From contig OZ024747.1 in the NCBI GenBank assembly GCA_964016885.1, positions 62,434,001-62,498,000 on the forward strand: 64,000 bases of DNA. Reading direction: 5' to 3'. The position numbers and the translations under genes were made by a program. Shown one piece after another: positions 27,309 to 28,252 of the stretch. The first letter of the stretch is position 1, and each line of letters opens with the position of its first letter. The notes under the pieces were generated by a model that was given only the letters and a program-made list of their open reading frames with translations, was not told the origin of the DNA and searched no databases. This DNA comes from Eledone cirrhosa (lineage: Eukaryota).

Positions 27309-27344
27309 CTTTTGAAAAGCAGAAGAACTGCGAAACCGGTAAAG
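27309..27344 (+). ncRNA. Hammerhead motif with U3:A8 core (UUGAAAA)
   Basis: CUU UUGAAAA GCAG AAGAA CUGC GAAAC CG GUA AAG; AATAAA follows near 27351. Confidence 0.7.
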
Positions 27345-27413
27345 GAACCAAATAAATAGATATATTTTTTTAAAAATAAGACTCCAGTTGCATTTTCGAT
27401 TTCATCTTTTTTT

Positions 27414-27469
<56 letters not shown>

Positions 27470-27607
27470 AGTGTAATTTACTACACAAAACGAAGGTTAT
27501 AGAGAAAATTGAGGTTGGTAATGGCACATGGAATATATAAGAGACAGAATACTTTTTTGTGAAAAAACATATAATTTTATAAGGTAAGGAAATAATAAAG
27601 GGTATAA

Positions 27608-27655
27608 AAAATGACCGGTTTCGATGGGTCTGCAAAAGCCATCTTTTCAAATGTT
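27608..27655 (-). ncRNA. Hammerhead motif with U3:A8 core
   Basis: AACAU UUGAAAA GAUGG CUUUUGCAGAC CCAUC GAAAC CG GUC AUUUU; lies between short inverted repeats 27501-27535 / 27855-27889. Confidence 0.65.
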
Positions 27656-27945
27656 GATTAATATTAAGAAAAATTAATAATAAGAAGAGTTAAAATTTGA
27701 GATTTGAAAATTCAAGTATAAAATTCATTGTGGATTTCACAGTAGTTTTCATCTTGGTAGCAGCTCGTTTAGCAGCTCGTTGACTGCTGGGTGCCTTTCT
27801 GGTAGTGAATGAGAAGTTATTTGGGGGTGTGGGTTATTTTATAAAGGTCAAATTTATTCCATGTGCCATTACCAACCTCAATTTTCTCTCTCTCTCTCTA
27901 TATATATATATAGTTAAAAGAATAGAGGTGTAACACACAAGTTAT

Positions 27946-28252
27946 TATATATTGGTAAACGGAATAGAAAATGCTGACAAATTGTTCACAGTTGAAAAAT
28001 GGTTTAATTAGGAATAAAAGAGTATTAGTGATTGTATGGGTTAGTATTCAGTTGTGCAAACAGCACGGACACTCTATCTCAAAATTATTTTTGAAAAGCA
28101 TTTAGAAATGCGCAACCGGTAAAAACTTAAAAACTTAAAACCACAACTGAATACTAACCCATACAATCACTAATACTCTTTTATTCCTAATTAAACCATT
28201 TTTCAACTGTGAACAATTTGTCAGCATTTTCTATTCCGTTTACCAATATATA
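27946..28252. mobile_element. Fold-back element, arms 27946-28056 / 28142-28252
   Basis: Apparently perfect 111-bp inverted repeat ending in (TA)n; HHR-like motif in the spacer. Confidence 0.85.
28088..28124 (+). ncRNA. Decayed hammerhead motif with U3:A8 core (GAAA changed to GCAA)
   Basis: UUU UUGAAAA GCAUUU AG AAAUGC GCAAC CG GUA AAA. Confidence 0.5.

Follow-up and report, generated by a model that had tools for sequence, protein, structure and literature searches.

Three short sequences lying within 800 bp of each other in a 64,000-nt stretch of Eledone cirrhosa DNA (the window) resemble hammerhead ribozymes in which C3 and G8 are replaced by U3 and A8. The question is whether this double change marks an inherited lineage or the decay of canonical ribozymes. 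A structure scan of both window strands returned these three U3A8 motifs; its sole other hit, at 59461-59491, has the canonical C3G8 core. All three read U3 U4 G5 A6 A7 A8 A9, stem II, G12 N13 A14 and A15.1-CCGG-U16.1, followed by H17 (A, C and A in motifs 1, 2 and 3), and the middle motif lies on the strand opposite to the other two. Pairing at 1.1-2.1, 10.1-11.1 and 15.1-16.1, as in a type I hammerhead, was present in each, with a stem I of merely 2-3 bp. The 3-8 pair was Watson-Crick throughout, U-A in all three motifs and in 9/9 family representatives. A pattern covering all three motifs gave three window matches and none in each of 100 dinucleotide shuffles, although this speaks for non-randomness only, the motifs themselves having served to define the pattern.

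The reading of an earlier note that these are hammerhead-shaped motifs with a U3:A8 core was borne out, with some corrections of detail. The three stem II helices are distinct as described, except that motif 3 has 5 bp and a UAGA loop, not 6 bp. The shared G(A/C)AAC is present; its C in motif 3 is core position 13 and represents the family norm, not decay of a single copy. The motifs were also held to be otherwise different sequences, which they are not, since an alignment of motifs 1 and 3 that takes in their flanks has 72-76% identity across some 120 nt. Compared to the consensus core in the consulted section of PMC3088659 (C3 U4 G5 A6 N7 G8 A9, G12 A13 A14 A15.1 U16.1 H17), all three carry U3 and A8, and motif 3 has C13 in addition. 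Judged by sequence, motifs 1 and 2 appear to be the published U3-A8 variant, and motif 3 is classed as hammerhead-like only.

Folding predictions gave stem II pair probabilities of 0.86 (motif 1) and 0.56 (motif 3), and stem I was nearly unformed (at most 0.02). For motif 2 the lowest-energy predicted fold was an alternative hairpin, and a misfold was predicted also for its dimer. An unformed stem I and a misfolded motif 2 are equally consistent with a dead motif. The ACCGGU self-duplex was calculated at -8.3 kcal/mol, and for motifs 1 and 3 the dimers are predicted to form through it. Rfam hammerhead models gave no window match for the three motifs at gathering score or at E<=10; this test is insensitive to such short motifs, as the canonical motif at 59461 scores just 18 bits.

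Table 1. Features of the motif cluster (window positions) and of reference elements elsewhere
Feature	Position	Strand	Basis or remarks
Hammerhead motif 1 (family A)	27312..27341	+	U3 A8 A13; stem II 4 bp; palindromic ACCGGU helix III
Motif 1 stem I arms	27309-27311 and 27342-27344	+	3 bp
Motif 1 predicted cut	after 27341	+	structure scan
Hammerhead motif 2 (family B)	27613..27650	-	U3 A8 A13; stem II 5 bp; ACCGGU; stem I 2 bp
Hammerhead-like motif 3 (family C)	28091..28121	+	U3 A8 C13 (28113); stem II 5 bp; ACCGGU; stem I 3 bp
3' UTR/pseudo-LTR piece of a family A Penelope-like element, truncated at its 5' end	26743..27420	+	blastn vs full-length A: 84% over 708 columns
(TA)n tract, common to A and B copy 3' ends	27417..27465		likely target site
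Family B Penelope-like element, 5'-truncated 3' end	27459..27856	-	94-97% to full-length B unit
Short inverted family B piece at B copy 5' junction	27858..27889	+	32 nt, 100%
(TC)n(TA)n tract separating B and C insertions	27885..27912		sequence
Inverted family C piece with 40-nt tail extension (27906-27945)	27906..28056	-	arm of perfect 111-nt inverted repeat
Family C pseudo-LTR piece, beginning 35 nt upstream of motif core	28056..28252	+	197 nt, 100% to full-length C
(TA)n tract, C copy 3' end	28247..28264		sequence
ORF1/ORF2 overlap, full-length A unit	L124:5492-5582		
ORF1/ORF2 overlap, full-length B unit	L116:4813-4900		
ORF1/ORF2 overlap, full-length C unit	L117:4704-4773		
Family D element	G000:C1:154872382-154877212 (L201)		Hydra-type Penelope-like

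All three motifs lie in tail pieces of Penelope-like retroelements, one from each of three sister high-copy families designated A, B and C; this kinship leaves the view of three independent cases of the double change unsupported. At the cluster the window contains dead, 5'-truncated or inverted end pieces only, which adjoin at (TA)n tracts (Table 1); the family A piece reaches 94% identity to the full-length unit across the final 189 nt. The region has a GC content of 29%, and the genome searched (3.0 Gb) is rich in microsatellites. Among families A-E, a second such family was found within 1.5 kb at 4/126 seed loci. Pile-ups at microsatellites like this cluster are therefore uncommon, and the idea of three families within 800 bp acting as a functional unit is unsupported. 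Diverged pieces resembling the 3' parts or flanks of the B and C references (70-86%, some matches taking in simple repeat or flank sequence) occur elsewhere in the window at 5925-6047, 7097-7167, 15302-15556, 16688-16844, 18440-18526 and 60920-61016. Tandem arrays were seen at 3-1688 (period 58, 29 copies), 8869-9835 (period 310, 3 identical copies) and 25084-25662 (period 32).

At one locus, a GIY-YIG C-terminus was located about 1 kb upstream of the family A motif. Full-length units of A, B and C, obtained from tandem copies, are 4.7-4.8 kb long and are arranged motif-ORF1-ORF2-3' UTR-motif. A 3' UTR of about 1-1.2 kb separates the reverse transcriptase (RT) and GIY-YIG ORF from the motif, which in tandem copies appears again about 190-220 nt ahead of the first ATG of ORF1. 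In all three families, then, the motif sits in a pseudo-LTR flanking a Penelope-like ORF. The ORF2 products (775, 777 and 784 AA across the three families, with 784 in family C) are RT-endonucleases mutually 56-57% identical. Pfam matched RVT_1 and GIY-YIG in ORF2 of A and C and returned no match for ORF2 of family B, which is 57% identical to the other two; alignment revealed a CX4CxxC linker, cysteines between GIY and YIG and a CCHH motif in all three. ORF1 comprises 409-455 codons, stop to stop, gave no Pfam match, and in A, B and C shares a U UUU UUA heptamer with the start region of ORF2, which it overlaps in the -1 frame; a programmed frameshift is predicted from this. A metagenome contig (L207) also has a similar ORF1 overlapping ORF2.

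A protein database search with a cutoff of E<=1e-20 revealed 1,075 relatives, with 59% identity for the best of them, and a search with a distant database relative returned almost throughout frames of A and C lengths. ORF pieces were looked up around sets of 108 and 20 motif loci, the majority of which had none. The metagenome scan yielded 1 locus of 1.2 kb lacking the 3' UTR, and the viral-contig pattern scan yielded 120 candidate stretches. Motif patterns gave 2,061 matches for family B and 6,294 for family C.

In several respects these elements resemble the Neptune/Nematis type, as characterized in the consulted part of Craig et al. 2021 (PMC8557442). They share the order of RT followed by C-terminal GIY-YIG, the linker (CX4CxxC, within the type's CX2-5CxxC), two cysteines between GIY and YIG, the CCHH motif, 5' truncation, tandem and inverted pseudo-LTRs, an optional tail (40-70 nt) and (TA)n targets. 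They differ from the canonical single-ORF organization in having an upstream ORF1 that overlaps ORF2; the Fig. 1 legend of that paper mentions an optional frameshifted ORF1. Because of this overlapping ORF1 we refer to families A, B and C only as "Neptune-like".

As to the lineage question, a single context pattern matched the genome 16,969 times with U3A8 and not once with C3G8, compared to 77 matches for C3A8, 37 for U3G8 and 1 for a reversed control. The earlier note had proposed setting the double change against single-change cores, but as a gauge of selection such counts are uninformative here: changes elsewhere in the core gave 48 (A6G) and 55 (A7G) matches, position 7 being free and A6 essential. 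Since C3A8 and U3G8 are no rarer than these, copy counts reflect decay after insertion and not selection. Six family A C3A8 motifs at about 9.6-kb spacing (G000:C1:348863669-348911674) go back to a tandem duplication, which makes the number of single-change cores appear larger. Selection is visible instead between families, where stems covary around a fixed core. Positions U3, U4, G5, A6, A8, A9, G12, A14, A15.1 and U16.1 were invariant, and H17 was non-G, in 9/9 family representatives. For these, 88.9% of the cells were paired and 6/9 pairs had changed on both sides, vs. 25-37% in slid controls, on a structure drawn from the same, related sequences.

Other families share U3A8 but have different stems II. 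Family E accounts for most of 870 matches; families F and G account for most of 21 matches, all 21 of them U3A8 although the pattern permitted C3 and G8. In a quick-method tree of 31 rows, a branch with an SH-aLRT of 99 separated A, B, C, E and F from family H, which has C3G8, the rows of E, F and H being partial and tied to the motif by position in 1-2 loci each. The same clade also holds database relatives, and core states are known for our own families only. Taken together, the absence of C3G8 parents, the placing of the five U3A8 families with usable protein sequence on one side of the branch and the covarying stems support U3:A8 as an inherited lineage state and not decay, as had been proposed.

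The double change itself is not new. A natural U3-A8 covariation of the 3-8 pair, active in vitro, is reported in the consulted section of Perreault et al. 2011 (PMC3088659), as a rare variant there and as the norm of a retroelement lineage here. About 1,300 hits of the variant, in Cercyon elements of Schistosoma mansoni, are given in the parts consulted of Cervera and de la Pena 2014 (PMC4209133), where Penelope-like hammerheads cleave weakly and as multimers only. Our motifs agree with those in their type I layout, location near the 3' end, short stem I, G10.1-C11.1 pair (9/9 representatives), palindromic helix III (ACCGGU in A, B and C), inverted pairs 100-700 bp apart and U3-A8 core, a UUGAAAA example being found in Fig. 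S3 of that paper. They differ in having no extra nucleotide between A9 and G10.1 and a CCGG palindrome instead of a zero-loop helix III; with G10.1 directly after A9, they belong to the small-palindrome form and not to the strict minimal form.

Position 13 sets family C apart. C13 was found in 6,248/6,294 family C matches, and the 46 others, counted by eye, are scattered over A (10), G (11) and T (25), so no A13 sister subfamily was found. The family is young: at least 25 of 131 scored loci tie at the top score and are identical over 299 AA of the RT, and many loci keep the 784-codon frame. All rows in Fig. S3 of PMC4209133 have GAAA or AGAAA, which the descriptor of that study demands. A13 changes cut activity 10-100-fold according to the part consulted of PMC4075628, citing earlier work, and two satellite sequences with an altered A13 appear in that of PMC2837043. 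The consulted section of PMC3088659 names a U13a insertion and no fixed A13 substitution. No C13 or G13 hammerhead family was reported in the literature searched; subscription papers and supplements beyond that search may contain one. As a second core letter is fixed in a changed state in family C, self-cutting is likely weak, and these elements likely spread without needing it.

A further family, D, combines U3A8 with G13 and a non-palindromic loop III and accounts for most of 754 matches (control 55), i.e., about 700 motifs. The sole ORF of its element runs to 758 codons and shows the marks of the Hydra clade: DKT is present, the linker reads CxCX5C and CCHH is absent. As D lies far from A-C in the quick tree, U3A8 with loss of A13 likely arose twice independently in this genome. 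We propose only tentatively that young autonomous families spread with A13-less U3A8 hammerheads (C13 Neptune-like, G13 Hydra-type), either by a new working core that frees position 13 or in a non-catalytic role.

Copy ends bear on whether the templates had been cut. Copies ended 3' at two fixed places, 80-170 nt beyond the predicted cut site, in 25/29 A, 24/25 B and 35/37 C cases (members of inverted pairs counted separately, and 12/37 C copies chosen for a non-C at position 13). At a common CAGA motif, 5' ends were located 40-43 nt upstream of U3 in 9/29 A copies and 41-45 nt upstream in 12/37 C copies; a cluster at 40-45 nt was seen in 0/25 family B copies. Genome-wide, patterns for junctions close to the cut site matched 342 times in A, 105 times in B and 130 times in C. 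Among the matches listed, 7/100 A, 16/100 B and 13/100 C, counted by eye, lay exactly at the cut site, with 14, 15 and 19 possible positions, respectively, and A/T runs blurring B and C. The result for A equals the uniform expectation, and that for B is a modest excess of about 13 events at an A/T run; a 5'-end pile-up at the cut site is absent in A, whereas in B and C it is weak and A/T runs confound it. The share of copies that begin at the cut site is far below 1%, vs. about 30% that begin at the upstream point in families A and C, and copies extend through the intact motif at both ends. Many starts 40-45 nt upstream and few at the cut site suggest that templates were mostly uncut. This does not prove that cutting is rare, because cut RNA may be destroyed or re-ligated.

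The reading that we favor, and regard as reasonably probable, is that these are pseudo-LTR hammerheads of sister families with a shared, likely inherited U3:A8 pair and a likely weak, dimer-dependent and protein-assisted self-cleavage, with cutting likely dispensable for insertion. Transcription would start at the upstream point 40-45 nt before the core, and reverse transcription would initiate at the two downstream points on RNA that is mostly uncut. Two motifs of a tandem transcript could pair via the ACCGGU palindrome and so build helix III. The fold may have been under selection during family divergence, with catalysis less constrained, and such looser constraint could have allowed A13C to become fixed in family C. 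Dimers of Penelope-associated variants reportedly cleave, according to a 2017 paper. In the consulted part of a study of the green anole Poseidon element (Frangieh et al. 2024, PMC11167929), the motif is protein-assisted, motif mutants still insert in vitro, reverse transcription has two internal starts, and the cut site shows no RNA ends. The two fixed 3' ends downstream of our motifs are like this; unlike ours, the Poseidon motif is C3-G8 and overlaps the start codon, in place of lying 190-220 nt before the ORF1 ATG.

Two other accounts deserve weighing, and both turn on how much catalysis the core still performs. It is conceivable, if rather unlikely, that the motifs no longer cut and that their fold persists because it serves some purpose other than catalysis, for instance protein binding, RNA pairing through ACCGGU or a fold near the reverse-transcription start. 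The A13C fixed in young family C would fit this, as would A13G with a non-palindromic loop III in Hydra-type family D, the stems I of just 2-4 bp, the retention of canonical C3G8 in tandem 467-bp arrays of the same genome, and a pairwise scan in which, in the part of PMC9901934 consulted, only the G:C swap acted as a rescue in that region. What it leaves unaccounted for is the constancy of U4, G5, A6, A9, G12, A14, A15.1, U16.1 and a non-G H17 in 9/9 representatives, as expected under catalytic selection, and the in vitro activity reported for U3-A8 ribozymes in PMC3088659. At the other extreme, the motifs could be fully working dimeric ribozymes, with U3:A8 a neutral swap, C13 tolerated and cutting required in the element cycle. 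We find this harder to believe: the Watson-Crick 3-8 pair, G10.1-C11.1 and the palindrome are retained across families, natural U3-A8 examples are known and family B has its modest junction excess, but copies pass through the intact motif at both ends, cut-site junctions in A do not exceed chance among the matches listed, motif mutants of another element insert normally in vitro, and A13 changes reportedly cost 10-100-fold.

To the possibility that these are decayed canonical hammerheads, or chance matches in AT-rich DNA, we give almost no weight. The low GC of the region and the lack of an Rfam hammerhead match are in line with it, yet there were no matches in 100 shuffles, the motif holds a fixed position in pseudo-LTRs of intact elements, and the family counts, with a single reversed-control match and no C3G8 parents, refute it.

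As U3:A8 is already described in this element class, what is added here is the scale (about 25,000 pattern matches vs. about 1,300 U3-A8 hits in the part of PMC4209133 consulted), the two families with C13 or G13 fixed, and templates that probably went mostly uncut. The one genome offers a natural series of C3G8/A13 (arrays and distant families), U3A8/A13 (A, B, E, F, G), U3A8/C13 (C) and U3A8/G13 (D), and the intact recent ORFs in A-D make the need for ribozyme cleavage testable on natural alleles. A canonical pattern gave 9,973 genome matches, of which those listed were dominated by tandem 467-bp arrays, and minimal-type C3G8 gave 16,213. Summed over patterns, which are not exhaustive, about 25,000 U3A8 matches stand against about 26,000 for C3G8. 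The expectation that CUGANGA-based searches miss the variant therefore holds, CUGANGA/GAAA descriptors overlooking roughly half of the hammerhead-type motifs counted by patterns in this genome.

The canonical C3G8 hammerhead of the window, with an ACUAGU palindrome and a 6-bp stem I, is part of a 430-bp tandem/inverted repeat (59199-59257 (-), 59461-59491 (+) and about 59892-59922 (+)) that resembles a retrozyme or pseudo-LTR piece. Elsewhere in the genome, tandem units of about 467 bp, each with a canonical hammerhead and often inverted at one end, were observed at G000:C1:5738327-5752443 (L218-L232).
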